From the NCBI GenBank assembly GCA_964355645.1, contig CAYHDI010000001.1:28778-92777 (forward strand): DNA of 64,000 bases, written 5' to 3'. The notes under the pieces were generated by a model. That model was not told where the DNA came from, did not search any database, and saw nothing but the letters and a program-made list of their open reading frames with translations. Made by a program: the position numbers and the translations under genes. The number at the start of each line of letters is the position of its first letter. Positions within the stretch are counted from its first letter, which is position 1. Below, one piece after another: positions 961-56,385 of the stretch. This stretch comes from an uncultured Candidatus Saccharibacteria bacterium. GTDB taxonomy: Bacteria > Patescibacteriota > Minisyncoccia > Phycocordibacterales > Zambryskibacteraceae.

Positions 961-994
961 GAAAAAAGAATCCCCGCACCAATTGGTGCGGGGG
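961..994 (-). terminator. intrinsic terminator (minus strand): hairpin CCCCGCACC-AATT-GGTGCGGGG then T6
   Basis: perfect 9-bp GC stem plus TTTTTT on minus strand, directly downstream of small GC-rich ORF. Confidence 0.75.
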
Positions 995-14045: not shown

Positions 14046-17000
14046 TTAAGAATTACGAATTGTGATATTCGTAGCCCTTTTAATCTCTTCATTATATTTC
14101 TTAAATATTTCTCTTTCTTCATCTGGCACAACATAAGACATCACATCTTTTGGTTTTAGATTCTTTTCTTTTCTCATTTCTTGAATCGAACGAATAATGT
14201 CTCGAACTTTGCCTTCCTCGGCAAGTTCTGGAGTGATATTTGAATCCACTAATACATCTTCAGAAACTACATATTTAATTTCTTTTACATTCACTTCATC
14301 TTTTATAAGTTCTTCATAAACATCTAATCGTTGCATTGATAAAGATTGAAGCGGTTGTCTTATTTTGATTCCGGCTTTTGCTCTTGCTTCTAAACCTCGA
14401 GAAACAATCTCTCTCGTTTTATTCATTCTTGAGATAATATCTCCATTTACATTTTTATCTTCTAAAGGCCACACATCCAAATGCACACTTTCCAAATCCT
14501 CTTCTGTTCGAAGTTTCTGATACAGTTCTTCTGCATAGAATGGAGTGAATGGTGCGAGGAGCTTAGAAATTGTTTTCAAGACAAAATACAAAGTCTGCTT
14601 CGCATCTTCGTCTCCTTCTTTGATTCGCTCGCGGGAACGACGAAGATACCAAGTCGAAAGGTCATCGACGAAATCTCGAATGGCACGGGTAGGTTCGAGA
14701 AGTTTGTAGTTATCAAGATTCTCTGTAGTTAACTTAATTAACTCATTCAATCTTATGAGAATCCATTGGTCGAGAATATTTCCACTCCCCGACACCCCAC
14801 CCTTGCCCTCCCCTTGATAAGGGGAGGGTTGGGAGGGGTCAGCATAAAGTTCATAGAAAGAATAAATGTTGTCGAGCATATTGAATACTCGTTTATTAAC
14901 TTCATCCACCGTCTTGTCATCAAAGTTTTTTGAATCCCCTGGTTGATTGATTGAGTACATCCAGAAACGCACCGCATCTGCGCCGTGTTTCTCCATAGAT
15001 TCAAACGGGTCTACCACATTACCCACTGACTTGCTCATTTTTTTGCCTTCCTTGTCCAAGAGTAAACCGAGGCAAATCACATTTTTGTAGGCTGCACCTC
15101 GATTCATGAGCACTCCTATCGCGTGCATGGTATAGAACCATCCACGAGTTTGATCAAGTCCTTCAGAGATAAAATCAGCTGGATAAAGAATTTTTGAGAA
15201 ATCCCCCGCTTTTTCTCGATTGTCAGAATCTTGAGAGAAAGGCATTGAACCGGAATCAAACCAAACATCCATCACTTCCTTCACTCGTTTGTATTCCTTC
15301 CCATTTTTCTCTAGGACAACTTCATCAATAAATGGTTTATGCAGATCAAGTTCAAAATTCGCGTTGTGCGGAAAAGGAACAAAATCTATTTCTTTTATTT
15401 CTGCATTCTTAGGATAATTTTCTGCTTCTATGTCATCCCCTATTTGTTCAGCAGTCAAACCTTTTGAACCAAGAATCATGTTCATGATTGGGGCACCATG
15501 ACTTATAAACAAAATATTTTTACCTGAATATTTGTTTTCATATTCTTCTAAGACTGTCATCACCCGAAACTTTGTATCGGTATAATTTTCCCCATCAGGG
15601 TTATTTTGTTTGTATCTATCTGAATAATGTTCATATCTAACCAAAAAATCATCCATTTTTTGGTTTTGATATTTATGGCCCGGATCAAATTCAATCAAAC
15701 GGTTATCTACGATGATTTCATTTTCGAAACCAATGGTTTCTTTAATAAGTTCTGAAGTTTCTTGTGCTCGCAGAATTGGAGAACGAATAATAATATCAAT
15801 TTTCTTATTCTTCAAACTTTCGGCCATTTTTTTCACTTGTTCTATACCCAACTCCGTCAAATGATTATTTGGATCTCCTTCTGAATCCCAAACCTTATTC
15901 ACATTATTCATGGCTTGACCATGTCGAACAGCGAAATATTTGTTGCCGGATTTTTTGGAATATTTCTTCAGGGTTTCAACCGAATCAACGACGATTCTAT
16001 CCTTCCCATCTATTGATGATTCTGCAAGCCAGATTGGAAGAGGTGTGCCCCAATATCTTTCTCGACTAATGGCCCAATCTTTCGCTTCTCGGAGCCATTC
16101 ACCAAAACGACCTTCCTTAATGTGAGAAGGTTCCCAATTTATCTTTTCATTTTCTTTGACCAATTTGTCTCGGAGCTCTGACATCCTGATGTACCAAGAA
16201 TCACGGGCATAATAAATCAATCGAGTCTTGCATCTCCAACAAAACGGATATGAGTGAGTATAATTTTCTTTCTCAAAAAGCAAGCTCCGATTTTGTAAAT
16301 CTTTCAAAATATCTACTGCCAGAGTTTCGTCCACCACCGAACGACCTTCGAGCCAATCCGTGCCTTTCATAAATGTTCCTTCCGGAGTGACTAGGTGAAC
16401 CTTTGGTAAGCCGACTTTCGTCCCAAGTTCGAAGTCATCTTGTCCATACATCACAGCTGTATGTACAATGCCCGTCCCATCTTCGGTGTTCACAAAATCC
16501 GCAGGGTAAACCCTGAAAGCCTTATCATCTTTTTTAATAAATGGATAAAGCGGTTCATATTCAAGGCCGACCAAATCCTGACCTTTAATTTTCTCAATAA
16601 TCTCGTATTCTCCTTCAACCACTTTCAATCTTGATTCAGCCAAAATTAAAATTTCATTTTCTTTTTTTATTTTTACATAATCAATTTTCTCCCCCACAGC
16701 AAGCCCGACGTTCCCCGGGAGAGTCCACGGTGTAGTGGTCCAAGCAAGCAAATATGTTCCCGGCTCATCGACTAGTTCAAACTTCGCTGTAATGGTTAAA
16801 TCCTTTACATCTTTGTACCCTTGAGCAAGTTCGTGGGTTGAGAGAGTGGTGCCACAACGCGGACACCAAGGTACAACTTTGTAATCTTTATAGAGTAAAT
16901 TCTGCTTTTCAACTTCGGAGAGAATCGACCAGATAGATTCCATAAACGGATTATGATAAGTCACATACGCGTTGTCATAATCCGCCCAATATCCCATACG

Positions 17001-17426
17001 GTCGCTTAATCTTCTCCATTCATCCACATAAGTCCAAACGGATTTTTTGCACTCATCATTAAATTTCTCTACGCCGTATTCTTCAATTTCTTTTTTGCTT
17101 TTTAGTCCAAGCTTTTTCTCCACTTCGAGTTCTACAGGTAAACCATGAGTATCCCAACCAGCTTTTCTGCGGACATGAAATCCGCGCATGGTTTTGTAAC
17201 GCGGAATAGCGTCCTTAAACGCGCGAGCTTCGACGTGATGAATACCCGGCTTGCCGTTCGCAGTCGGGGGTCCTTCATAAAACACAAATTCACCCTTGTC
17301 AGCGGGCTTCTTTAGAGTCTTTTCAAATATTTTATTGTCTTTCCAGAACTGGAGAATTCTTTCTTCTCTCTCTGATCTGGTAAGCCTTTTATCTTCAGGT
17401 TTACCCTGAGTCTCATCGAAGGGCAT
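14046..17426 (-). CDS. ileS: isoleucyl-tRNA synthetase with inserted histidine-phosphatase domain and in-frame palindromic element
   Basis: class I motifs (P-x-x-NG-x-xHHV, W-ISRERYWG, KMSKS); 190-aa RHG...SHG insert at 15372-15938; palindrome at 14796-14839. Confidence 0.9.
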   Translation of the reverse strand: MPFDETQGKPEDKRLTRSEREERILQFWKDNKIFEKTLKKPADKGEFVFYEGPPTANGKPGIHHVEARAFKDAIPRYKTMRGFHVRRKAGWDTHGLPVELEVEKKLGLKSKKEIEEYGVEKFNDECKKSVWTYVDEWRRLSDRMGYWADYDNAYVTYHNPFMESIWSILSEVEKQNLLYKDYKVVPWCPRCGTTLSTHELAQGYKDVKDLTITAKFELVDEPGTYLLAWTTTPWTLPGNVGLAVGEKIDYVKIKKENEILILAESRLKVVEGEYEIIEKIKGQDLVGLEYEPLYPFIKKDDKAFRVYPADFVNTEDGTGIVHTAVMYGQDDFELGTKVGLPKVHLVTPEGTFMKGTDWLEGRSVVDETLAVDILKDLQNRSLLFEKENYTHSYPFCWRCKTRLIYYARDSWYIRMSELRDKLVKENEKINWEPSHIKEGRFGEWLREAKDWAISRERYWGTPLPIWLAESSIDGKDRIVVDSVETLKKYSKKSGNKYFAVRHGQAMNNVNKVWDSEGDPNNHLTELGIEQVKKMAESLKNKKIDIIIRSPILRAQETSELIKETIGFENEIIVDNRLIEFDPGHKYQNQKMDDFLVRYEHYSDRYKQNNPDGENYTDTKFRVMTVLEEYENKYSGKNILFISHGAPIMNMILGSKGLTAEQIGDDIEAENYPKNAEIKEIDFVPFPHNANFELDLHKPFIDEVVLEKNGKEYKRVKEVMDVWFDSGSMPFSQDSDNREKAGDFSKILYPADFISEGLDQTRGWFYTMHAIGVLMNRGAAYKNVICLGLLLDKEGKKMSKSVGNVVDPFESMEKHGADAVRFWMYSINQPGDSKNFDDKTVDEVNKRVFNMLDNIYSFYELYADPSQPSPYQGEGKGGVSGSGNILDQWILIRLNELIKLTTENLDNYKLLEPTRAIRDFVDDLSTWYLRRSRERIKEGDEDAKQTLYFVLKTISKLLAPFTPFYAEELYQKLRTEEDLESVHLDVWPLEDKNVNGDIISRMNKTREIVSRGLEARAKAGIKIRQPLQSLSMQRLDVYEELIKDEVNVKEIKYVVSEDVLVDSNITPELAEEGKVRDIIRSIQEMRKEKNLKPKDVMSYVVPDEEREIFKKYNEEIKRATNITIRNS

Positions 17427-17441
17427 TGTGGGCTTATCTTA

Positions 17442-19046
17442 TCACATCCTTTCTGGAGCGGGAATACCGAGGATAGTTAAGCCGTTTTTCATGACTGTAT
17501 TGAAAGCGCGAGTGAGAGCGATGAGGTATGAAGATTCTGGTTTGTCAGAAATGATTTGTTCGTTCGCATAAAGATTGTTGAAACTACCTGCAATTTCGGT
17601 TAAATATGTAGTAAGAAGATTTGGAGAATATTCTACACACGCTCGTTCAACAATTTCTGGGAATCTATAAAGAAGTTTTTCAACTACACGCACCTCACCT
17701 ACCGCAAGCGGTCCCCCCTCCCCTTGCCAAGGGGAGGGCTGGGAGAGGTGTACCTTAGCTTTCTCTAAAATTGAACATGTTCGCGCATAAGCATATTGAA
17801 GATAAACACCAGAATCACCTTCGATTGAAACCGATTTTTCTATATCAAAAATAATATCGTTGCCGACTGATTGACGAAGAATCATATATTTTATTGCTCC
17901 TATGGCTACTTGTTCATCGCCTTTTGTTTTTTCCTTCACACTCTCGATTAAAGTTTCTGCCTCTAATGCACCACCAGATCTAGAACTCATTTTGCCCGTA
18001 GGTAAGCGGAGCATACCGTGCCCAATATGTTTGGTAATCTCTGCGAGTTTGGGAGAAATAAGTTTAAGTGCTTGAAGCAACACTTTAAAATAAGCATTGA
18101 CCTCATTGCCCGTCACCACGATTGATTTGGTGTATGGATATTTCTCAAACTTTATTGGGGCTAAGCCAAGTTCTTTGGCTTCATAGGTTGGGATACCTTC
18201 TGAATTTATAAAGACACGAGTATGAAGCGCTTTATCATAATTTTCTGCATGAAAGACAACGGCTCCATTCTCCCCTGCTTCGAAAACTTTTCCCATATTT
18301 TCCTCTACGATTTTCTTGCCTCTTGGAGCTGATTCCGATTCAAAGAAAAAATAGTCAAAATGACTGCCTAATTTTTTATAAATAGAATCAAAATATTCTA
18401 AACTAGCTTTTCTACCTTCATCATAAAGTTTGTTTATAGATTCATCCGAACGATTATATATCTTTTTATTTATTTCTTGGATTTCTTTTCTGATATTCTC
18501 ATCTTCTTCAAATTTCTTATTCCCAAAAACATACGGCTCATTTGAGCCTTGCATTGTTCCCCAGACAGCTTTGGCTACATGAATTCCCACATCACCTTGG
18601 TAGCAAGCTTGTTTCACTTCGGCGCCGTTCCATTCAAAAATATTCGCGAGTGTTGAACCAACTACATTGGGCATAAGGTGACCAATATGGAATGACTTGA
18701 AAGGATTTGGGTCGGTGTGCTCCACCATCACCTTCTCTCCTTTTAAACTTTCATTCTTTCCAAATTCACTACCCTTCTCTACAATCTCTCCAATACTTCT
18801 CTTGAAAAATTCCTTGGATAAATAAAAATTTATGAAGCCGGACTTCAATTCTACTTTTTCAATCTCACTTGGGTGTCGGACAGCCAAGTAATCAACAATC
18901 TCCTGGGCCTTCTTGGAAACAATTCCAGCGTTGGTTGTATAGTCCCCGAAAGCAAGGTTCGTTGGGTGTTCTACTATGAATTTGGCGTTTTTAGTGCCAA
19001 CACTTTCTAAGGCCTTTTTGACTAGATTTTCTATAACTTTTTTCAT
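17442..19046 (-). CDS. argS: arginyl-tRNA synthetase with in-frame palindromic element (17714-17750)
   Basis: FHIGHL HIGH-motif, catalytic core and DALR anticodon-binding C-terminus. Confidence 0.9.
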   Translation of the reverse strand: MKKVIENLVKKALESVGTKNAKFIVEHPTNLAFGDYTTNAGIVSKKAQEIVDYLAVRHPSEIEKVELKSGFINFYLSKEFFKRSIGEIVEKGSEFGKNESLKGEKVMVEHTDPNPFKSFHIGHLMPNVVGSTLANIFEWNGAEVKQACYQGDVGIHVAKAVWGTMQGSNEPYVFGNKKFEEDENIRKEIQEINKKIYNRSDESINKLYDEGRKASLEYFDSIYKKLGSHFDYFFFESESAPRGKKIVEENMGKVFEAGENGAVVFHAENYDKALHTRVFINSEGIPTYEAKELGLAPIKFEKYPYTKSIVVTGNEVNAYFKVLLQALKLISPKLAEITKHIGHGMLRLPTGKMSSRSGGALEAETLIESVKEKTKGDEQVAIGAIKYMILRQSVGNDIIFDIEKSVSIEGDSGVYLQYAYARTCSILEKAKVHLSQPSPWQGEGGPLAVGEVRVVEKLLYRFPEIVERACVEYSPNLLTTYLTEIAGSFNNLYANEQIISDKPESSYLIALTRAFNTVMKNGLTILGIPAPERM

Positions 19047-21034: not shown

Positions 21035-21083
21035 TTAAAAAAATTGCAAACAAATAGGCCGGTCGCAGAGTCTGCGACCGGCC
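21035..21083 (-). terminator. intrinsic terminator (minus): 12-bp stem GGCCGGTCGCAG-AGTC-CTGCGACCGGCC plus T-run; second small hairpin+T-run at 20995-21015
   Basis: seen directly downstream of GC-rich ORF 21134-21670. Confidence 0.7.
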
Positions 21084-26063: not shown

Positions 26064-27137
26064 TTATGGCAAATCCCTAACAAATTTTTTATATCTATGA
26101 ATCAAACTTCGCATGCTTTGTGATTTTGTATGAGATAAATGGCCTAAATATGAAGAAAAGGATTGATTGAATTCTCCTTTTGTTGATTTTCCATTTTGTA
26201 AGTTATAAGTCATTTTTCCTAACTTTTTTTGTATTCTTTTTTTAGTTTTAGTTCTAGGCACAACGTGATAAGGCATTGCAACGGCTCCTAAAAAATCTAC
26301 ACCTTGGAGAAACGAACGGATACTAACCTTACTTGGATGTAATTCGAGCTTTAAATGTTCTATTAAAAACTTTTGTATAGGATAGATAAATAGATTCAAT
26401 TTTTCACGACTCGAATCAAGGATAACAAAATCATCGCAGTATCTAATGTAATTTTTACTTATTTTGGTTTTAATAAACCAATCAAACTTGTTCATGTATA
26501 CATTAGCGAAAAGCTGACTGGTAACATTACCGAGAGGTAAACCCTTCCCTGATATTTTATGAAAGGTATCAATTATCTTCGCCAATAAATCTAAGGTTTT
26601 CTTGCATTCAATTTTTTCTTTTAGGAGATTATTTAAAATATTGTGGTTAATTGAATCAAAAAACTTTCGTATATCACACTTGAGCGCATAGGTCTGACCT
26701 GTGTAGTTTCGACTGATTTTTCGAGACATTTTGACAAGTCTATCTATACCTGCATGAGTACCCTTGCCCGTTCTACTAGCATACGAATCAAAAATAAAAT
26801 CATTATCAAAAATTGGATACAAAACCTGATGGATGGCTTGATACAAAACCCTATCTCGAACTGAGGCTTTATGAATCTTTCTTGGTTTTGGATCACGAAT
26901 AGAAAAAGATGTATATCCATCACATGTCCATTGTCCTGAAATTAGTTCTTTTTGAAGCCCAAAAATGTTATTCTCAAGATTGAGAGAAAAATTTACAATA
27001 TCAAGTTTTTTGTTTTTGTTTTTTTTGAATTCTCGCCAAGCGAAAAATAAATTCTCGAGCGAAATAATTTTATGGAAAATACTTCTATCAAGACCCCCCC
27101 CCCCAACGGTATTTTGGTGGCTCCGATTATCGTTCAT
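26064..27137 (-). CDS. DGR-type reverse transcriptase (first ATG 27137; ORF track start 27143 is TTG)
   Basis: RT domains with LPLGNVTSQ (DGR-specific I/LGxxxSQ motif 4) and YCDDFVIL (YxDD); no maturase/endonuclease domains; N-terminal GGGG encoded by (G)11 tract. Confidence 0.88.
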   Translation of the reverse strand: MNDNRSHQNTVGGGGLDRSIFHKIISLENLFFAWREFKKNKNKKLDIVNFSLNLENNIFGLQKELISGQWTCDGYTSFSIRDPKPRKIHKASVRDRVLYQAIHQVLYPIFDNDFIFDSYASRTGKGTHAGIDRLVKMSRKISRNYTGQTYALKCDIRKFFDSINHNILNNLLKEKIECKKTLDLLAKIIDTFHKISGKGLPLGNVTSQLFANVYMNKFDWFIKTKISKNYIRYCDDFVILDSSREKLNLFIYPIQKFLIEHLKLELHPSKVSIRSFLQGVDFLGAVAMPYHVVPRTKTKKRIQKKLGKMTYNLQNGKSTKGEFNQSFSSYLGHLSHTKSQSMRSLIHRYKKFVRDLP

Positions 27138-27461
27138 GTGCAAAAATTATATCAGGAATTATACATAATCGCCGAACAAATTCCGAAGCGAGATAAGCTT
27201 GGCCTACATGCCGAGATTGAGAAAACTTGTATCAAAACACTCTCACTCTGTATTCAGGCATCACTGGCTTCTAAAGGTGACAAATTTTCTTTAATTCGTG
27301 ATATAAGAGTATTAATAGAAACAATGAAATACCTTATTCGCGTTTCTCATGAACTTTTAATCATTAATCAGAAAAAATATATTTCTTTGGAATCAAAACT
27401 GCAGGAAATTTCTAAGATGGCTAACGGGTGGGAGAGATATGCAACAAACAATCCCGCTTAA
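27072..27461 (+). CDS. avd: Avd-like accessory variability determinant (four-helix-bundle, TIGR02436-like), antisense to RT; possibly starts at GTG 27112
   Basis: IPKRDKLGL...KY...L.EI.KM.NGW pattern of Avd/four-helix-bundle family; (C)11 tract 27094-27104 in N-terminal codons. Confidence 0.7.
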   Translation: MENTSIKTPPPNGILVAPIIVHVQKLYQELYIIAEQIPKRDKLGLHAEIEKTCIKTLSLCIQASLASKGDKFSLIRDIRVLIETMKYLIRVSHELLIINQKKYISLESKLQEISKMANGWERYATNNPA

Positions 27462-27482
27462 GCGGGATTGTTGTAAAACTTC

Positions 27483-27590
27483 GGGAACCGAGGTTCGAAT
27501 TGCGATTCGTCGGAGCGTACCAGTTCACGTTCGACTTGTCGTCGTTCCAGTTCGCGTTCGGCACGTTGCCATTCGAATTGCGAGAACCTC
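27483..27590 (-). repeat. DGR1 template repeat (TR)
   Basis: 108-nt match to VR 27833-27940; ~17 of 18 differences at TR adenines (minus strand); TR ORF is Asn-rich. Confidence 0.85.
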
Positions 27591-27763
27591 CGTTGCTCTC
27601 CTCCGTCCGTATCACCGAAAGACGTTTGCCTTTCTGCGTTTATGAATTTCTCGCGGTACTCTCGAGCGTTGTGTTGAAGAAAGCAAGCAGTTTTGTTTTA
27701 TTGCGATAAATTGTTATTCAAAAGAATCAATTAAACAATCGCGTAAATATTATATATGAAAAT

Positions 27764-27790
27764 CCGCCAAGCACACGAGGTGCTTGGCGG
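27764..27790 (-). promoter_or_regulatory. GC hairpin CCGCCAAGCAC-ACGAG-GTGCTTGGCGG ~30 nt 3' of VR1, preceded by conserved TTATATGAAAATC; DGR homing-associated stem-loop candidate
   Basis: perfect 11-bp stem; equivalent motif+hairpin at DGR2. Confidence 0.6.
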
Positions 27791-27816
27791 AGGGTTAAAG
27801 AGAAAAGATGCAAGGT

Positions 27817-28524
27817 TTAGACACAAACCCTGCGGGAACCGAGGTGCGAATCGCGACTCGTCGGAGCGTACCAGCCCACGCCCGACTTGCCGCCGCCCCC
27901 GTACGCGCCCGGCACGTCGCCACTCGAATCGCGAGAACCTGAATTGAGTGTCCAGGTCTGGCGGTCGGGATGGTGGCCGTGCTTCAGGAAATACATCGCC
28001 GAGAACAGCGCGTACTCGAGATGAGTCGATGTCTTGATGCCCATCTCGGCGATTTGGTTCGCCGATTTGTTCATCAGATTCTCGTCCGGGGTTTCCGAGT
28101 CGAGCATCAGCACGACGTACGAATCATTCCCGGGATTGCGCTCGTCCTTGTGGGTCGGAATGGCAAGATCGAGGGAGTCGCTCGTGTACTTCCAACACGG
28201 GAAGAGTTTCTTCCGAGCTTGGAACACGTCCTCCTTCGGTTCGCCATTCGTCCACTCGACGAGCTCGCGCATCATGGGTACCGCGAGGTACTGCCGAGCA
28301 TCCGGGGCCCGCGGGATGAAAAGGTTCGAGAAGTCCAGGGCCTTGCCGAAGAGCTTTTCGTACAACACCGACATGAACGAAACGTCGATGTTGCTGTCAA
28401 CCACTTGCGTGGCGACAGCAACCTTCTTCACCAGAGCGTCCCGAAGACGCCGAGCGAGAAGCGAAGGATTGCTGATGTAGCGCTGTTGCTCCTTCGTTGT
28501 GAGAAGTGGCAACTGCGCGAGCAC
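27817..28524 (-). CDS. DGR1 target (variable) protein; VR at 27833-27940 encodes C-terminal CLec-like NSGSRDSSGDVPGAYGGGGKSGVGWYAPTSRDSHLGSRRV
   Basis: VR/TR pairing; GC-rich gene; no signal peptide evident. Confidence 0.8.
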   Translation of the reverse strand: MLAQLPLLTTKEQQRYISNPSLLARRLRDALVKKVAVATQVVDSNIDVSFMSVLYEKLFGKALDFSNLFIPRAPDARQYLAVPMMRELVEWTNGEPKEDVFQARKKLFPCWKYTSDSLDLAIPTHKDERNPGNDSYVVLMLDSETPDENLMNKSANQIAEMGIKTSTHLEYALFSAMYFLKHGHHPDRQTWTLNSGSRDSSGDVPGAYGGGGKSGVGWYAPTSRDSHLGSRRVCV

Positions 28525-42858: not shown

Positions 42859-43440
42859 ATGATTGCCACTCTAAAGGGTCTGGTCACCCACAAGGATCTC
42901 CATATGCTCATAGTTGATGTGAAGGGTGTGGGCTACAAAGTTTTCGTCCCCACAGACACCGCTCTCGACGCCCTGCCGGGTCAAGAAATTTCACTTTGGA
43001 CCTATCTCTCCGTGAGAGAGAACGCTCTTGATTTGTTCGGATTTAAAGATAAAGAAAATTTGGATCTTTTCGAACTACTCATCGGAATTTCGGGTATTGG
43101 CCCGAAAACGGCCCTCGGAATACTGAATGTCGCTTCCCCATCGATGCTTAGACAAGCAGTAGCCGAAGAAGATACTTCGTATCTCACTCGAGTTTCTGGG
43201 ATTGGCAAGAAAAATGCAGACAAGATTGTTCTCGAACTTCGAGACAAACTAATCACCACTTCGGCAGACACGGGTCTAAACATGCGGGCAGAAGGTGATG
43301 CCTTGGAAGCCCTTGTTTCCCTCGGCTATACAGAACGTGATGCACGCGAAGCTTTGAAAAAAGTCCCAAATAATCCGCCAGCTGGCGGAGAAAACCCGAG
43401 CGAACGAGTGAAGCAAGCCCTAAAAATACTTTCCAGGTAA
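42859..43440 (+). CDS. ruvA: Holliday junction branch-migration protein RuvA; contains in-frame NPPAGG palindrome (43374-43389)
   Basis: N-terminal OB domain and two HhH motifs (GIGPKTA, GIGKKNA). Confidence 0.9.
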   Translation: MIATLKGLVTHKDLHMLIVDVKGVGYKVFVPTDTALDALPGQEISLWTYLSVRENALDLFGFKDKENLDLFELLIGISGIGPKTALGILNVASPSMLRQAVAEEDTSYLTRVSGIGKKNADKIVLELRDKLITTSADTGLNMRAEGDALEALVSLGYTERDAREALKKVPNNPPAGGENPSERVKQALKILSR

Positions 43441-45179: not shown

Positions 45180-46070
45180 TTAGATAAAGAGTTTCTGATG
45201 AACTGGGCAGAAATGTGCACTGCGGGTACCAACAACAATTCGTTTGATAATTCCTTTGCATCCAGGTTTCAAACATTTCAAACCGGTTCTTTGATACGCT
45301 CGGTGGTAATCTTGAAACTTCCCTTTCTCTCCGTTGATATTTCTATAGTCGAACATCGAATCACCACCAAAATCAATTCCCTTTTTCAAAGTTTCTTTCA
45401 TCGCTTTGAACATTTCTTTCAATCCGCCAGCTGGCGGATTTTCTGGAATCGCCTGCACAATAGAGAGTGGATGAACGGACGTACGCCAGAGTATTTCGTC
45501 AGAATAAATATTCCCTATTCCCACAATAATTTCTTGGTCCATCAATACAGTTTTGATTTTGCCTTTCGGTTTTTTCAGTAATCCTTCTTTGAAAATTTCA
45601 AAAGTAAATTTCTTGTCTAGTGATTCTGGCCCAAGATGCAGAACATGGAGAGATTCGTCTAATTTGTCCGTTGGAATGAGAGTAATCTTCGCAAACTTGC
45701 GCATATCAGAAAACGCAAGATGTTTCTTGTTGTCTAAAGTCAAATCAAAGTGAATAAACGAGGCATTCTTCGGTGGATTGTAGAAAAAGTGGCCCGTCAT
45801 CTTCATGTGAACGAGAATAGTTTCGTGATTATTCAAATCTATCAGAACATTCTTACCTCTTCTTCTAGCTTTCAAAATTCTCGCCCCAACAATTTTCTTT
45901 TTGAATTCTTTAAAATACTTTGAATTCTTAATCTGGTTTTTATTGAAAATTGAAAATCGTGAATTGTAAATTTTCGAGCCATAGTCCGTCCAAACATCTA
46001 AAATCTTCCGACCCTTCACCGTTCGGTTCAAGCCATTCACTGTTGTTTGGACTTCTGGAAGTTCGGGCAT
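45180..46070 (-). CDS. mutM: formamidopyrimidine-DNA glycosylase (Fpg/MutM/Nei family); in-frame NPPAGG palindrome at 45423-45438
   Basis: MPELPEVQT N-terminus, H2TH, C-terminal CxxC-x-CxxC zinc finger. Confidence 0.9.
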   Translation of the reverse strand: MPELPEVQTTVNGLNRTVKGRKILDVWTDYGSKIYNSRFSIFNKNQIKNSKYFKEFKKKIVGARILKARRRGKNVLIDLNNHETILVHMKMTGHFFYNPPKNASFIHFDLTLDNKKHLAFSDMRKFAKITLIPTDKLDESLHVLHLGPESLDKKFTFEIFKEGLLKKPKGKIKTVLMDQEIIVGIGNIYSDEILWRTSVHPLSIVQAIPENPPAGGLKEMFKAMKETLKKGIDFGGDSMFDYRNINGEKGKFQDYHRAYQRTGLKCLKPGCKGIIKRIVVGTRSAHFCPVHQKLFI

Positions 46071-47063: not shown

Positions 47064-47136
47064 GCCCCCATAGCTCAATGGTAGAGCATTCGCCTTTTAA
47101 GCGATCGATCATGGTCCGATTCCATGTGGGGGCACA
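47064..47136 (+). tRNA. tRNA-Lys (anticodon TTT), atypical T-loop
   Basis: acceptor GCCCCCA/TGGGGGC; anticodon loop CTTTTAA; D-arm GCTCAATGGTAGAGC. Confidence 0.7.
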
Positions 47137-47966
47137 TGAATATTTTCGGTCAAAAATGTTTGGCTTTAAGGAGGTTGGGACACACATTGACTGAAATCTC
47201 TAAAATCACTGGTAGACCAAAGTCTTCGGTCTATGGATATATACAAAATATACCGTTAGATACAAAAAAACTAAAGTCTATAAAACAGGCCTCTGGTATT
47301 AGAGCCCGGAAACTTGCTCAAGATAGAAAAGGCAAAAGTAACAGAATTTTCAAAAAGTTTAACGCTTGGAATAAAGATACGATAAACATAGTTTCTCATT
47401 TTTTATTTGATGGAGAGATTAAAAAAGAAGGATGTATTTATAATAACCGTAACACTTCTTTGGTTCATGGGGTAGAAAAATCCATGAAAAAAATCTATGA
47501 CTTTAAGCCTAAATATTATTTTAACAGCAAGACCGGGGTAAGCAGAGTATCTTATTTTAATGTTGTTCTTGGTGCATATATGAAAAATAAATCAGAAGAA
47601 TTATTGAGGGAAATTTTAAATTTACCAGTGAACCTAAAACGAATATTTTTGCGTGCTTTTTTTGATGATGAGGGGTGTATGGATTATAGACCAAAACGTA
47701 ATCTCAGAAGAATACGGGGCTATCAAAAGAACAATAAAATTCTTCATCTAATCCAAAAATTGCTCAAAAGCTTTGATATCGAATCTTCTATAATTCCACC
47801 TAATGAAGTGGTTGTTTCCGGTAAAAAAAATCTGCAAAAATTTCAAGAAAAAATTAATTTCTCGTCCGGTGTAAAAATCAACGGGAAACGACCAAACAGT
47901 ATCTGGAAAAAATCTCTAGAGAAACGAGGTTTGCTTGACCAAGCCATTCGTTCTTTTAAAACTTGA
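47124..47966 (+). CDS. LAGLIDADG-type homing-endonuclease-like protein with N-terminal HTH, abutting tRNA-Lys 3' end
   Basis: two LAGLIDADG-like motifs (SHFLFDGEI, LRAFFDDEGCMD) plus HTH. Confidence 0.6.
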   Translation: MWGHMNIFGQKCLALRRLGHTLTEISKITGRPKSSVYGYIQNIPLDTKKLKSIKQASGIRARKLAQDRKGKSNRIFKKFNAWNKDTINIVSHFLFDGEIKKEGCIYNNRNTSLVHGVEKSMKKIYDFKPKYYFNSKTGVSRVSYFNVVLGAYMKNKSEELLREILNLPVNLKRIFLRAFFDDEGCMDYRPKRNLRRIRGYQKNNKILHLIQKLLKSFDIESSIIPPNEVVVSGKKNLQKFQEKINFSSGVKINGKRPNSIWKKSLEKRGLLDQAIRSFKT

Positions 47967-51279: not shown

Positions 51280-51698
51280 TTCTCTATTGTACCATTTTGA
51301 GCTTCTGGTGCTCTAAGGATTGTTTGAGTAAGTTTATTTGTATTCCCGTGTTTCAACAGCCCTAAATAGGACTGGGTGGTTTCTTGGTTATTTTGGCTAT
51401 CTTTGAGTCTTTTAAACATTCTATTTTTTGTACTAGTTCTCAAAATTCTATAATCAGAAAAATGTACCCACCCCAGAAAATCAATACCTGAAACTAGGGT
51501 TTTAATGGAAACTTTGTTTGGATGTAATTCAAGTTTAAGAATCTGGTTTAGATAACATACGATATATCGCATGTTAAGCATAAGATAATTTTTGTTTTGA
51601 AAGAACTTTCGCACATCACATTTCAATACCCAACATTGTTTTGTGTTGTTCTTGGAAACTTTGTATGAAAATTCTCTAAACCTGTTCATATGATACAT
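51276..51698 (-). pseudogene. degenerate DGR reverse transcriptase remnant (140 aa; lacks domains 1-2 and motifs 4/5 incl. YxDD)
   Basis: N-terminus ~RT1 FAWREFKK fused to ALKCDIRKFF region; C-terminus ~RT1 thumb (LELHPNKVSI...GIDFLGW). Confidence 0.7.
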
Positions 51699-52076
51699 AA
51701 TATCGCGACCCCCCCCCCCGCAAAAGCACCCGAGGTGCTTTTTAAGGGAAGAGCAACTTATAAATATTGGCTTCAGTTATATAAACAATTTCGGAAACCA
51801 GAACGTTTTGGACTCGGTGAAAAAATAGATACACTGTTTCTAGAGGTATTAGAACTTATCTATACAGCAATCTATTTAGAAACATCAGCGAAAATACCAA
51901 AACTTGAGCTCGCTATTCTTAAATTAGACAGAATAAAATTGTTCTCTGAAATTGCTTGGGAAAATAAACTGATACTCACAGATAAATACACTCTTTTTCT
52001 AACACAACTTCAAGAAATCGGCAGGCAACTTTCCGGTTGGAAGAAAAGTTTGATAACAAAAACTTCCACCCTATAA
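51690..52076 (+). CDS. avd: Avd-like four-helix-bundle protein (paralog of 27072-27461), (C)11 at 51709-51719
   Basis: RKPERFGL...KY...L.EI....SGW pattern; ATG overlaps RT-remnant ATG in CATATGATACATATG. Confidence 0.7.
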   Translation: MIHNIATPPPAKAPEVLFKGRATYKYWLQLYKQFRKPERFGLGEKIDTLFLEVLELIYTAIYLETSAKIPKLELAILKLDRIKLFSEIAWENKLILTDKYTLFLTQLQEIGRQLSGWKKSLITKTSTL

Positions 52077-52100
52077 AAAGCGGAAGAAAATATATAGTTT

Positions 52101-52210
52101 CGGAAAAGTACCACGTTCTCGGCATTCCAACGATTCGAGTTCTCGAGCTTGTTGACGTTCACGTTCCAGCCATTCGAGTTCCGGTTCACGTTGAGAAAGA
52201 ACACTGACGC
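52101..52210 (-). repeat. DGR2 template repeat (TR)
   Basis: 110-nt match to VR 52491-52600 with ~26 differences, all but one at TR adenines (minus strand); Asn-rich TR ORF. Confidence 0.85.
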
Positions 52211-52412
52211 TTTTGTACAACAAGCCATCTATGCCACTACCCCTTGATCACTCTCGAGGTTGTATCGTATTCGGAATCTCTATTCCTTAGTTTGTTATAC
52301 CAACTGTTTATTTTTTTGTGAGTCGTGACTTACGACTCGAGCCCACCACACTAAGCGTAACAGCGAAGTGTGCCAGTGTAGCCTGATTTTATTATATGAA
52401 AATCGGGTGACT

Positions 52413-52438
52413 CTTGCGAGTCACCCGAGTAGTTTTGT
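52413..52438 (-). promoter_or_regulatory. GC hairpin TCGGGTGACTC-TTGC-GAGTCACCCGA preceded by TTATATGAAAATC, ~45 nt 3' of target2 stop
   Basis: perfect 11-bp stem; same arrangement as DGR1. Confidence 0.6.
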
Positions 52439-52483
52439 TTCTGGCCCAGATCAGAAGTGACCAAGGGTCAAAGAGACAGAGGT

Positions 52484-53143
52484 TCAGTTGCGGAAAAGTA
52501 CCACGCCCCCGGCACGCCAACGATTCGAGAACTCGAGCCTGAGGACGAACACGCGCCAGCCAAGCGAGCGCAGGTACACGTCGAGAAAGAACACCGACGC
52601 TCCATCGAAGATGGGAACCAAGTTCGCCCAACCGTCCGTGCGGAGGTGGAAGGGGTTCTCACCCCGGTCACAAGCAACGAGCATGTCGTCGACCTGCTTG
52701 GGAGAGAAACACTTGCCACACTCGACGAGCGTCCCCGCGACAAGATCGAGATTCTTCTCGATGCCGAGGTGCTCGACGGACATCTCAATGAAGTTCATCT
52801 CTGCACCGAGCTGGTAACTCGACGCACGACCTTCGATCATCGCCGGCACGGACTTCCGAAGCCAGTTGTCTAGATCTCCATCACGGTAAACGATGTGCTT
52901 ACCGCGGAAGAGATCCTTGGTCTTGCACTCGCCGACTGCTTGTACGGTGATGTTCGTGGCGAGAGCGATGAGGCTGGCAACGACTGCCTTGAAGCGGTTC
53001 TTGATCGCCTCACCCCAAAGTCTGATGGCTTCGACGGTATTCTGAATCGCCCACTGTGCATCCTCATTCGAGAACTCACGGATGGACGACTGGTGTTCGA
53101 CCACGAGGCCAGCGAGCTTGTACTGCTGTTGTTCGGTTGCCAT
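52484..53143 (-). CDS. DGR2 target protein; VR 52491-52600 at C-terminus (...NRWRAGGVVLFRN)
   Basis: VR/TR pairing; GC-rich. Confidence 0.8.
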   Translation of the reverse strand: MATEQQQYKLAGLVVEHQSSIREFSNEDAQWAIQNTVEAIRLWGEAIKNRFKAVVASLIALATNITVQAVGECKTKDLFRGKHIVYRDGDLDNWLRKSVPAMIEGRASSYQLGAEMNFIEMSVEHLGIEKNLDLVAGTLVECGKCFSPKQVDDMLVACDRGENPFHLRTDGWANLVPIFDGASVFFLDVYLRSLGWRVFVLRLEFSNRWRAGGVVLFRN

Positions 53144-55332: not shown

Positions 55333-56385
55333 ATGTCAAGTAAAAAGTCGCCGGCCAAAAAGATTACAAAAGGGGTAAATCCGCCAGCTGGCGGAGAAAG
55401 CGAAGAGGTTTTTGTAGGTGAAGAGCTTCGTCCCTCAAAATGGGATGATTATATTGGTCAAAAAGCGATTAAAGAGAATCTCCGAATCCTCCTCCAAGCC
55501 GCCTCAGAACGTGGTACTCCGCCTGAACATATCCTGTTTTATGGCCCCCCTGGGCTCGGGAAGACCACCCTGGCGCATTTGATATCCAAGACGACAGGAA
55601 GAGCCATGAAGATTACCTCGGGCCCCGCTCTCGAGAAGGTGGGTGACCTTGCTTCAATCCTCACGAACCTCACTCCAGGAGATATTTTATTCATTGATGA
55701 GATTCATCGCTTGAACAAAACTATTGAAGAAGTCCTCTACCCCGCGATGGAGTCCGGTTCACTCGACATCATTATTGGGAAAGGCCCTTCGGCTCGAACC
55801 ATTCAACTTGAACTCCCGCCTTTCACTTTACTCGCGGCTACCACCCGCGTCGCGATGATTTCTTCTCCGCTTCGTTCAAGGTTTTCGGGCGGAGTTTTTC
55901 GATTAGAATTTTATACAGATGAAGAAATAGAAAAGATTGTGAAGCGCTCGGCGAAAATATTGGGTGTAGAAACAGACGGCACCGCAGAAAAAGAAATTGC
56001 CAAGCGAAGCAGATTCACCCCGCGCACGGCCAACTACTTTTTGAAACGTGCGCGAGACTTCGCCCAAGTACACAAAAAAACTTTGGACAAAAATACCGTT
56101 GAGGAATCTCTGAAACTTCTCGGAATAGATGAGATTGGACTTTCTCCGTCGGACAGAAAACTTCTTGAAACTATGGCGAAGAAATTTAATGGTGGCCCCG
56201 TTGGTCTCGGTACTCTCGCCGCAGCTCTCTCCGAAGAAGAAGCGACCATCGAAGAATTCAACGAACCATATCTTATTCAAATGGGAATGATTGAACGTAC
56301 CCCGCGTGGTCGTACACTCTCCGAGGCCGCGTATCGACATCTGGATATTCCCATTCCCAAAAATTTACAAGAAAAGCTGTTGTAA
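55333..56385 (+). CDS. ruvB: Holliday junction helicase RuvB; NPPAGG palindrome in N-terminal tail (55380-55395)
   Basis: GPPGLGKTTLA Walker A, FIDEIHRL sensor, winged-helix C-terminus. Confidence 0.92.
   Translation: MSSKKSPAKKITKGVNPPAGGESEEVFVGEELRPSKWDDYIGQKAIKENLRILLQAASERGTPPEHILFYGPPGLGKTTLAHLISKTTGRAMKITSGPALEKVGDLASILTNLTPGDILFIDEIHRLNKTIEEVLYPAMESGSLDIIIGKGPSARTIQLELPPFTLLAATTRVAMISSPLRSRFSGGVFRLEFYTDEEIEKIVKRSAKILGVETDGTAEKEIAKRSRFTPRTANYFLKRARDFAQVHKKTLDKNTVEESLKLLGIDEIGLSPSDRKLLETMAKKFNGGPVGLGTLAAALSEEEATIEEFNEPYLIQMGMIERTPRGRTLSEAAYRHLDIPIPKNLQEKLL

Follow-up and report, generated by a model that had tools for sequence, protein, structure and literature searches.

A perfect palindrome in three genes

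The question raised by this locus is how one perfect 16-nt palindrome, TCCGCCAGCTGGCGGA, came to lie inside ruvA, fpg and ruvB and to be read in all three as N-P-P-A-G-G. The stretch of DNA analysed here, hereafter the window, is 64 kb long and comes from an ultra-small groundwater Patescibacterium of the Hainich aquifer. Exact matching bore out the original prediction of a threefold, in-frame recurrence: the window holds exactly three copies, all within long ORFs, in one common codon phase and in repair or recombination genes (Table 1). Together with the AA on its 5' side, the 16-mer forms an 18-mer, AATCCGCCAGCTGGCGGA, that is also found at all three places. In fpg the palindrome is longer, reaching 20 nt (10+10 nt as against 8+8 nt for the 16-mer), and this copy is predicted to form a DNA hairpin of -8.1 kcal/mol. 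It is the 16-mer itself that forms the conserved unit, the flanking AA of the 18-mer perhaps being derived from the target.

The palindrome has a GC content of 0.75, as against 0.415 for the window. No degenerate copies were found elsewhere in the window at up to three mismatches, and its six-frame translation contained no other NPPAGG-like peptide at up to one substitution. That the recurrence is not a matter of chance, as had been claimed, is supported by 100 dinucleotide-preserving shuffles of the window, which gave 0 matches to TCCGCCAGCTGGCGGA. The same three copies are present in four independent assemblies of the organism (L122-L125) from different sequencing runs, and thus are not an assembly artefact.

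Table 1. Positions of the palindrome copies, their host genes and other features in the 64-kb window
Feature	Position	Strand	Description
Palindrome copy 1	43374..43389 (18-mer from 43372)	.	(N)PPAGG, RuvA residues 172-177 of 193
Palindrome copy 2	45423..45438 (18-mer from 45421; 20-nt form 45421-45440)	.	(N)PPAGG, Fpg residues 211-216 of 296, minus strand
Palindrome copy 3	55380..55395 (18-mer from 55378)	.	(N)PPAGG, RuvB residues 16-21 of 350
ruvA host gene, 193 aa	42859..43440	+	Pfam RuvA_N/HHH_5/RuvA_C on identical gene in L122; PDB matches 7oa5, 1ixr
fpg/mutM host gene, 296 aa, start MPELPEV	45180..46070	-	100% match to P0001; Pfam Fapy_DNA_glyco, H2TH; PDB match 1tdz
ruvB host gene, 350 aa	55333..56385	+	Pfam RuvB_N/AAA/WHD_RuvB on same gene in L122; homologues found
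DGR hairpins	27763-27791, 52403-52428		None of the three palindrome copies has TR/VR nearby
LAGLIDADG gene	47124-47966		No palindrome half-sites flanking the gene

Several candidate links between the palindrome and other sequences of the window were rejected. The hairpin directly 3' of VR1 (the first in Table 1) has GAAAATCCGCCA...TGGCGGA in common with the palindrome. A connection to the DGR was nevertheless not supported, as tblastn with its RT and Avd proteins found a single match in the 800 kb of palindrome-bearing loci, one that we judge coincidental. A link to the LAGLIDADG gene failed for want of flanking half-sites, and derivation from a tRNA is weak, resting only on a 7-mer, TCCGCCA, that matches the 3' end of tRNA-Ser; an Rfam search of the window recovered tRNAs only. 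With respect to the restriction motifs that had been suggested, the PvuII site CAGCTG does lie within the palindrome while an AlwNI site does not, and counts of CAGCTG in the window (9, with 10.1 expected) show neither avoidance nor enrichment. The palindrome had also been described as a second family of in-frame palindromic insertions. A first family does exist, in the form of CCCTCCCCTT-N3-AAGGGGAGGG in IleRS and ArgRS, although its origin by insertion could not be shown, the ArgRS copy being located in a naturally variable linker.

Empty sites in homologous proteins

Conservation of NPPAGG among orthologues would have refuted the idea that the copies are in-frame insertions, and ortholog alignments revealed no such conservation. 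All 119 Fpg homologues (60-89% identity) lack the peptide, reading IPEK-NLKEMF in place of the IPE-NPPAGG-LKEMF of the window, and it is likewise missing from 119/119 RuvA homologues (K-(K/E)I-EN as against N-NPPAGG-EN) and from RuvB relatives at 92-95% identity. Because NPPAGG is absent from every one of these Fpg and RuvA homologues, and because the closest relatives (89-95% identical) have "empty" sites, we conclude, on the basis of sequence comparison, that all three window copies are insertions.

The copies had been proposed to occupy flexible regions, which was upheld for the variable N-terminal tail of RuvB and for Fpg, where alignment to a solved structure places the copy just past the H2TH motif, at a 4-residue alignment gap relative to Lactococcus Fpg (1tdz). 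In RuvA, alignment to 1ixr locates the copy in a loop within C-terminal domain III rather than in the proposed linker between domains II and III. The same signature of four additional residues was recovered by alignment to solved structures in MetK and TatD of unrelated members of the Candidate Phyla Radiation (CPR), while one SufS gene aligns as +6 aa and not +4.

Junctions of empty and filled alleles

Ancestral junctions were inferred from the nearest empty alleles, which are 5-11% diverged at the protein level. In Fpg, the empty allele CCG GAG AAA AAT TTG (L121) corresponds to the filled CCA GAA AAT CCG CCA GCT GGC GGA TTG. In RuvB, GTG GAG AAA AAT GAA AGC (L421), with a second empty allele reading GCT AAA AAT GAA GGT (L418), stands against the filled GTA AAT CCG CCA GCT GGC GGA GAA AGC, and in RuvA, AAG AAA ATA GAA AAT (L126), with AAG GAA ATA GAA (L422) as its second empty allele, stands against AAT AAT CCG CCA GCT GGC GGA GAA AAC. 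At all three sites, AAT plus CCGCCAGCTGGCGGA thus takes the place of two codons, Lys-Asn (AAAAAT) or Lys-Ile (AAAATA), a net gain of 12 nt or four residues, which can equivalently be described as the 16-mer in place of four target bases. Because the exact ancestral sequences are unknown, this "16 for 4" is not a unique description: "18 for 6" and "15 inserted plus one codon lost" fit just as well.

No target-site duplication was found in the empty and filled pairs; three to four target bases are lost instead, which is a mismatch with standard transposition. We know of no transposition chemistry that moves a 16-bp unit while deleting four target bases. The copies are flanked on both sides by DNA that is A-rich on the same strand. 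The sequence GAGAAAAAT has just 6 occurrences in 128 kb (both strands of the window), yet two independent empty sites bear it, which speaks for a preferred target.

History of the copies in the window lineage

Within a cluster of RuvB proteins at least 90% identical to one another, four lineages carry the insertion and three members lack it. Empty sites are also found in L417 and L418, at 92-95% identity. The copy is perfect in the window (NPPAGG), whereas it differs by one mismatch in L419 (CAC CCG CCA GCT GGC GGA, HPPAGG), by two in L420 (AAT CCG CCA ACT GGC GCA, NPPTGA) and by four in L416 (AAT CCG TCG GTC GGC GGA, NPSVGG). It follows that the RuvB copy is old, has been passed on vertically and is decaying, non-synonymous changes included. 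The window, L416 and the empty L417 are roughly equidistant from one another at 83-85% nucleotide identity, and the syntenic 21 kb of L417 contains no copy of the palindrome. In another Hainich well, a more distantly related RuvB (72% identity) carries AAT CCG CCG GCT GGC GGA in its tail, one synonymous change away from the palindrome. Across 430 kb around ruvB in 80 relatives, we found a single degenerate copy.

The Fpg and RuvA copies, by comparison, are confined to the window lineage. A sister organism in sample SRR22388057 has the RuvB copy and empty Fpg and RuvA sites, so that, if its three contigs represent one genome, the Fpg and RuvA insertions are younger than the RuvB copy and the lineage has experienced at least two waves of insertion. 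That the old RuvB copy is still perfect in the window hints that gene conversion or selection maintains it, and this counts against a purely selfish element, which would have no need of maintenance.

Distribution across genomes

Beyond the window, an exact-match search located AATCCGCCAGCTGGCGGA at 120 loci or more in a collection with one genome per species, where uniform base composition would lead one to expect about 17, and AT-rich DNA fewer. Because this count is a lower bound and the scan included no matched control palindromes from the same collection, it does not yield genome-wide densities. The analysis covered the 64 kb of the window and 8-kb pieces of the other genomes. Among the 120 matches listed, 69 (~58%) carry a CPR or Patescibacteria label in the record title and come from many classes, including Saccharibacteria, Microgenomates groups, Parcubacteria groups, Berkelbacteria and WWE3; the others listed are mainly Bacteroidota, MAGs labelled as Gammaproteobacteria or Bdellovibrionales, and Elusimicrobia, all taxonomic labels being those on the database records. 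The loci among these matches have a median GC of 0.40, with 99/120 below 45% GC. Several of the genomes listed yield multiple loci, one of the listed matches lies in a closed genome (CP011213) and some lie near contig ends. Closely related genomes mostly lack the palindrome.

Viral contigs gave 55 matches to the 16-mer, as compared with 91, 14 and 47 for three composition-matched control palindromes; such control counts indicate that raw numbers of matches in large databases are not evidence in themselves. Of the matches to the palindrome, however, 10/55 lie in viral contigs below 45% GC, as against 4/152 of the control matches. A virus-borne origin was rejected: the viral matches are within the control range and most are in GC-rich phages and in the RQLA frame, so that they look like chance or ordinary coding sequence.

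Host genes and reading frames

When ORFs with the 16-mer and a length of at least 150 aa are sorted by frame, 40 have it as PPAGG, 13 as RQLA and 7 as SASWR, many of the RQLA and SASWR cases being at ORF edges or in doubtful ORFs. When only Pfam-annotated hosts are counted, the PPAGG frame outnumbers the other frames by roughly 32 to 3. These PPAGG-frame hosts include tRNA synthetases (CysRS, GluRS, AspRS, LeuRS and another class II enzyme), other proteins of RNA metabolism and translation (TsaD, MiaA, the CCA-adding enzyme, Pth, PNPase and methionine aminopeptidase), the tails of the chaperones DnaK (two copies) and GroEL, secretion proteins (SecA, SecD and SecF), metabolic enzymes (MetK, SufS, glutamate dehydrogenase and glycosyltransferases) and DNA-related proteins (RecJ, RmuC, TatD and a conjugative coupling protein).

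In CPR, the majority of copies are intragenic. Some copies are intergenic: two genomes have one upstream of fusA, at orthologous positions, and others lie between rpmI and rplT or upstream of pilin paralogues. An all-against-all comparison of the 250 nt on either side of 140 copies revealed no shared flanks save for local paralogous duplications, and nothing in common except an A-rich composition. The flanks being unrelated, the repeated or mobile unit is the palindrome alone, and membership in a larger element was not supported, no shared body having been found around these copies.

A proposed mobile repeat without coding capacity

We lean towards the interpretation, with somewhat better than even confidence, that TCCGCCAGCTGGCGGA is a non-coding, non-autonomous "micro-palindrome" that spreads by copying to new sites within AT-rich genomes and also passes from one lineage to another. 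The identity of its sequence in unrelated genes and distant lineages, its origin by indel at an A-rich target and its patchy, multi-copy spread fit a mobile repeat, as do its repeated activity in one lineage, its decay after insertion and its lack of coding capacity. Counted against this reading is that only three copies were seen in the 64 kb of the window genome.

In this scheme, the palindrome arrives by insertion or replacement at A-rich sites, AAAAAT or AAAATA becoming AAT-CCGCCAGCTGGCGGA, and is then inherited vertically and decays by point mutation, which we regard as shown; the steps that follow are inferred. Insertion itself may be blind to the reading frame, as a net gain of 12 nt would keep any gene in frame. 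Survival would be limited to copies that are read in the Pro-Pro-Ala-Gly-Gly phase and are located in a surface loop or a disordered tail, where they are presumably harmless to the host. The predominance of this frame would thus be due to selection on host proteins acting as a filter, PPAGG being a benign peptide in loops and tails and the products of the other two phases, SASWR or RQLAD, not. Intergenic copies could persist as hairpins, often at terminator-like positions, and some of them may have been co-opted in that capacity. We hypothesize that the palindrome, in duplex or hairpin form, is recognized and integrated by a trans-acting, sequence-specific enzyme that is itself horizontally mobile. 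Candidate kinds are nucleases, recombinases and HUH-type enzymes; no gene has been identified, and a mobilizing enzyme for the palindrome was not found.

Alternative explanations

The alternative that survives best, though we still rate it as unlikely, dispenses with a dedicated enzyme. Within a genome, the palindrome would spread when replication switches template, or when short-patch gene conversion takes place, between the A-rich microhomologies beside existing copies (AAAAT to the left, GAA or A-rich sequence to the right). Stalling of the polymerase at the hairpin would favour such events, and ordinary recombination would carry copies between lineages. Replacement of target bases without duplication, A-rich flanks on the same strand on both sides, the stable hairpin and the failure to find a transposase-like partner or a larger element would all follow naturally from such a process. 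What it leaves unexplained is the presence of an identical 16-mer in unrelated genes of dozens of CPR classes, Elusimicrobia and other phyla. Moreover, other GC-rich hairpins at these loci show no comparable spread: the stem of the palindrome occurs 133 times in 800 kb of palindrome-bearing sequence and the next most frequent stem 5 times.

A selected DNA or RNA signal, whether an uptake sequence like Neisseria DUS or Haemophilus USS, a protein-binding site or a terminator or attenuator hairpin, is suggested by the nature of the window copies, which are all in repair or recombination genes and all perfect, with no decayed copies in 64 kb, as well as by the intergenic copies at fusA, at rpmI-rplT and upstream of the pilin paralogues. 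DUS are biased towards genome-maintenance genes, and CPR bacteria are believed to depend on DNA uptake. The apparent repair-gene bias, however, fails outside the window, where hosts are housekeeping genes of all kinds and nucleic-acid repair or nuclease genes make up only 3 of about 33 annotated hosts. The density of about one copy per 21 kb is far from the roughly one per kb of DUS and USS; near relatives lack the palindrome, apart from the one degenerate copy in 430 kb; and copies arise from indels and not through the point-mutation drift expected of uptake sequences. Because copies are sparse, absent in relatives, arbitrarily positioned within genes and, in orthologous RuvB, free to decay even non-synonymously, a functional signal is disfavoured, and we consider it improbable.

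Selection might instead act on the peptide, with NPPAGG gained repeatedly as a flexible linker or as a protease or modification site. While dominance of the PPAGG frame in real genes and the placement of copies in loops and tails are in keeping with this idea, all copies found use one set of codons (synonymous versions would be missed by searches with DNA patterns), the same DNA is also intergenic and in other frames, and orthologous copies drift to NPSVGG and NPPTGA; for these reasons we hold peptide selection to be very unlikely. The hosts are, in addition, functionally unrelated, and the window offers no second peptide of this kind.

Chance, or an artefact such as an adaptor or chimeric junction, scarcely deserves credence: GC-rich 16-nt palindromes are not rare in huge databases (14-91 viral-contig matches for controls) and some matches lie near contig ends, yet zero copies are expected in the window, the four independent assemblies agree, the reading frame is kept every time, matches come from many laboratories and assemblers, the closed genome included, and orthologous copies decay as if descended from one insertion.

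Relation to known repeat families

A mobile micro-palindrome invites comparison with described repeats. Rickettsia palindromic elements (RPEs; Ogata et al. 2000, as summarised in PMC10969869) are ~100-150 bp in length, comprise ten families, sit in-frame within metabolic genes and are confined to Rickettsia. They are among the closest analogues of the palindrome (PMC10969869): both are in-frame palindromic repeats in unrelated housekeeping genes of small AT-rich genomes, translated where the fold permits, non-coding, and without a known mobilizing enzyme. The palindrome meets the RPE-like criterion of in-frame residence in unrelated conserved genes at sites tolerated by the fold, and does not meet that of a ~100-150 bp element of families 1-10, as its unit is 16-20 bp. 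Unlike RPEs, it adds four residues and is identical across many CPR classes and some other phyla, although no comparison with RPE sequences was made.

Mitochondria of yeast (GC clusters) and of Neurospora (PstI palindromes) likewise contain short GC-rich palindromes that invade AT-rich DNA (PMC8811140; Yin et al. 1981 as cited there). GC clusters are reported (PMC8811140) to form in-frame insertions in var1, to diverge fast after insertion and to be deemed mobile without a known enzyme; unlike the palindrome, they are described there as longer, mostly intergenic, organellar and species-variable, with terminal AG/TAG repeats read as target-site duplications. GC-rich invasion of AT-rich DNA, in-frame insertion and decay are all met by the palindrome, as judged by its GC content relative to that of the window, the 99/120 listed loci below 45% GC and the RuvB series, while terminal AG/TAG repeats are not met at its copies. 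Further differences are the loss of target bases and the identity of the sequence across phylum-level lineages.

The palindrome also resembles MITEs and RAYT-associated REPs in being non-autonomous, multi-copy, composed of an inverted repeat and able to form a hairpin. MITEs are much longer, generate target-site duplications and have a parent IS element, whereas REPs are extragenic and begin with a conserved GTAG. Terminal inverted repeats are present only in the trivial sense that the whole unit is an inverted repeat; neither a target-site duplication nor a related autonomous IS or larger body accompanies the palindrome, the profile of its flanks is without GTAG and, as noted, it is chiefly intragenic in CPR. 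HIP1 of cyanobacteria and DUS/USS occur about once per kb in every member of a clade and arise by point mutation. The palindrome shares with them over-representation of a short motif across a clade and tolerance in particular reading frames inside genes; it is, in contrast, sparse, patchy and derived from indels, and with 3 copies in 64 kb and one degenerate copy in 430 kb of 80 relatives it does not meet the expected density. The three copies do not meet the criterion for a DGR target-site hairpin either (a hairpin 3' of a VR with a TR).

The palindrome thus fails the defining tests for MITEs, REPs, DUS/USS and HIP1, and it is distinct from RPEs and GC clusters in its tiny size, its fixed gain of 12 nt without duplication, its identity across phylum-level lineages and its CPR hosts. 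Full-text literature searches for the sequence, for the NPPAGG peptide and for palindromic elements in CPR returned nothing relevant, and no published description was found. In sum, its behaviour resembles that of a mobile DNA repeat, the smallest so far observed within genes.

Implications

If the preferred interpretation of a mobile repeat is true, 16 bp suffices for such an element, far under the usual sizes of MITEs, REPs and RPEs, and the element crosses phylum-level boundaries in the Candidate Phyla Radiation and beyond. Its copies would serve to date and orient events of DNA exchange and insertion in organisms that are mostly unculturable, they would point to sites in RuvA, RuvB, Fpg, tRNA synthetases, MetK, DnaK and GroEL, all essential proteins, that tolerate the gain of four residues rich in proline and glycine, and the defined target (AAAAAT) and product offer a handle for seeking the responsible enzyme by comparing element-rich with element-poor genomes. 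For annotators, the palindrome is a caution that what looks like a small lineage-specific "insertion" in a CPR protein can be repeat DNA and not an adaptation.

More tentatively, and as a possibility to which we give only limited weight, CPR/Patescibacteria and some bacteria of other phyla from the same scan may share a horizontally transferred, sequence-specific DNA-writing activity that replaces about four bases at AAAAAT-type sites with a fixed 16-bp palindrome. Were this so, the palindrome would be the smallest known mobile genetic unit, moved by a class of enzyme not yet tied to transposition. Under such an activity, the core proteins of carriers would be remodelled four residues at a time.

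Diversity-generating retroelements and an adjoining hairpin

The region 26064-28524 is a complete diversity-generating retroelement (DGR), comprising a reverse transcriptase, an Avd-like ORF, a template repeat (TR) and a target gene that carries the variable repeat (VR), with the Avd assignment resting on judgment by eye, without Pfam confirmation. Every TR/VR difference inside the repeat falls at a T of the plus strand, that is, at an A of the coding strand. A second DGR target locus occupies 51690-53143, and here too the differences between TR2 and VR2 are adenine-specific. This target island, of approximately 1.5 kb, is missing from the syntenic 21-kb stretch of a relative (L417).

Features identified in the window
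Feature	Position	Strand	Remarks
CCCCGCACCAATTGGTGCGGGG	972-993		long perfect or near-perfect palindrome
CCCTCCCCTTgatAAGGGGAGGG	14806-14828		in IleRS; read PSPYQGEG
CCCTCCCCTTGcCAAGGGGAGGG	17716-17738		in ArgRS; read PSPWQGEG
GGCCGGTCGCAGAgTCTGCGACCGGCC	21057-21083		long perfect or near-perfect palindrome
DGR reverse transcriptase	26064-27143	-	YCDD motif
Avd-like ORF, first DGR	27072-27461	+	by eye; no Pfam confirmation
AACAATCCCGCTTAAGCGGGATTGTT	27447-27472		long perfect or near-perfect palindrome; overlaps Avd-like ORF stop codon
Template repeat, first DGR	27479-27589
Target gene, first DGR	27817-28524	-
Variable repeat VR1, first DGR	27830-27940		3' end of target gene
Free-standing LAGLIDADG_3 protein	47124-47966		HTH at N-terminus
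bAvd, second DGR locus	51690-52076		PF22296
TR2	52096-52211
Hairpin	52403-52428		directly 3' of VR2
VR2-containing gene	52484-53143	-
VR2	52486-52601		inside the VR2-containing gene

An intergenic hairpin, TCCGCCAAGCACacgagGTGCTTGGCGGA, is also found directly 3' of VR1 (27763-27791; 12-bp stem, -16.2 kcal/mol). When compared with the 16-mer palindrome of ruvA, fpg and ruvB, it is identical in the outer 7 nt of either arm as well as in its GAAAAT left flank, and it has a 12-mer in common with the fpg copy. Judged from sequence alone, this likeness could be a product of chance (roughly p = 0.01) or could mark a real relationship, and neither reading is settled.

Other elements, hairpins and palindromes

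Next to the tRNA-Lys gene (47064-47135) lies the LAGLIDADG_3 gene, the position of which is taken by an IMPDH gene in L417. The three long palindromes listed in the table occur once each in the window.

We also identified a second family of GC-rich hairpins within genes, with one copy each in the IleRS and ArgRS genes. Both copies are preceded by Ser-Gln, and each lies within a longer GC-rich stretch of its own. An origin by insertion is not demonstrated for the ArgRS copy, because its site is a naturally variable linker. In the isoleucyl-tRNA synthetase itself (14046-17426, 1126 aa), residues 499-662 form a histidine-phosphatase domain (His_Phos_1) that lies within the catalytic domain.

The 16-mer palindrome in other genomes

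Among other genomes bearing the 16-mer palindrome, a Parcubacteria DnaK (L029, 4615-4681) has two copies, 51 nt apart, in its disordered C-terminal tail (NPPAGGG...HPPAGGE), and a Wildermuthbacteria GroEL (L102, 7368) has one copy in its Gly/Met-rich tail. A cluster of paralogous type IV pilin-like genes on a Patescibacteria contig (JBMNNJ010000001; L089, 4100-7800, and L101) possesses repeated AT-rich upstream regions, each with the palindrome or a degenerate version of it (CCCGCCAACCGGCGGA, TTCGCCAGCTCGCGGA), and some of these upstream palindromes are lengthened to a terminator-like palindrome of at least 30 nt.
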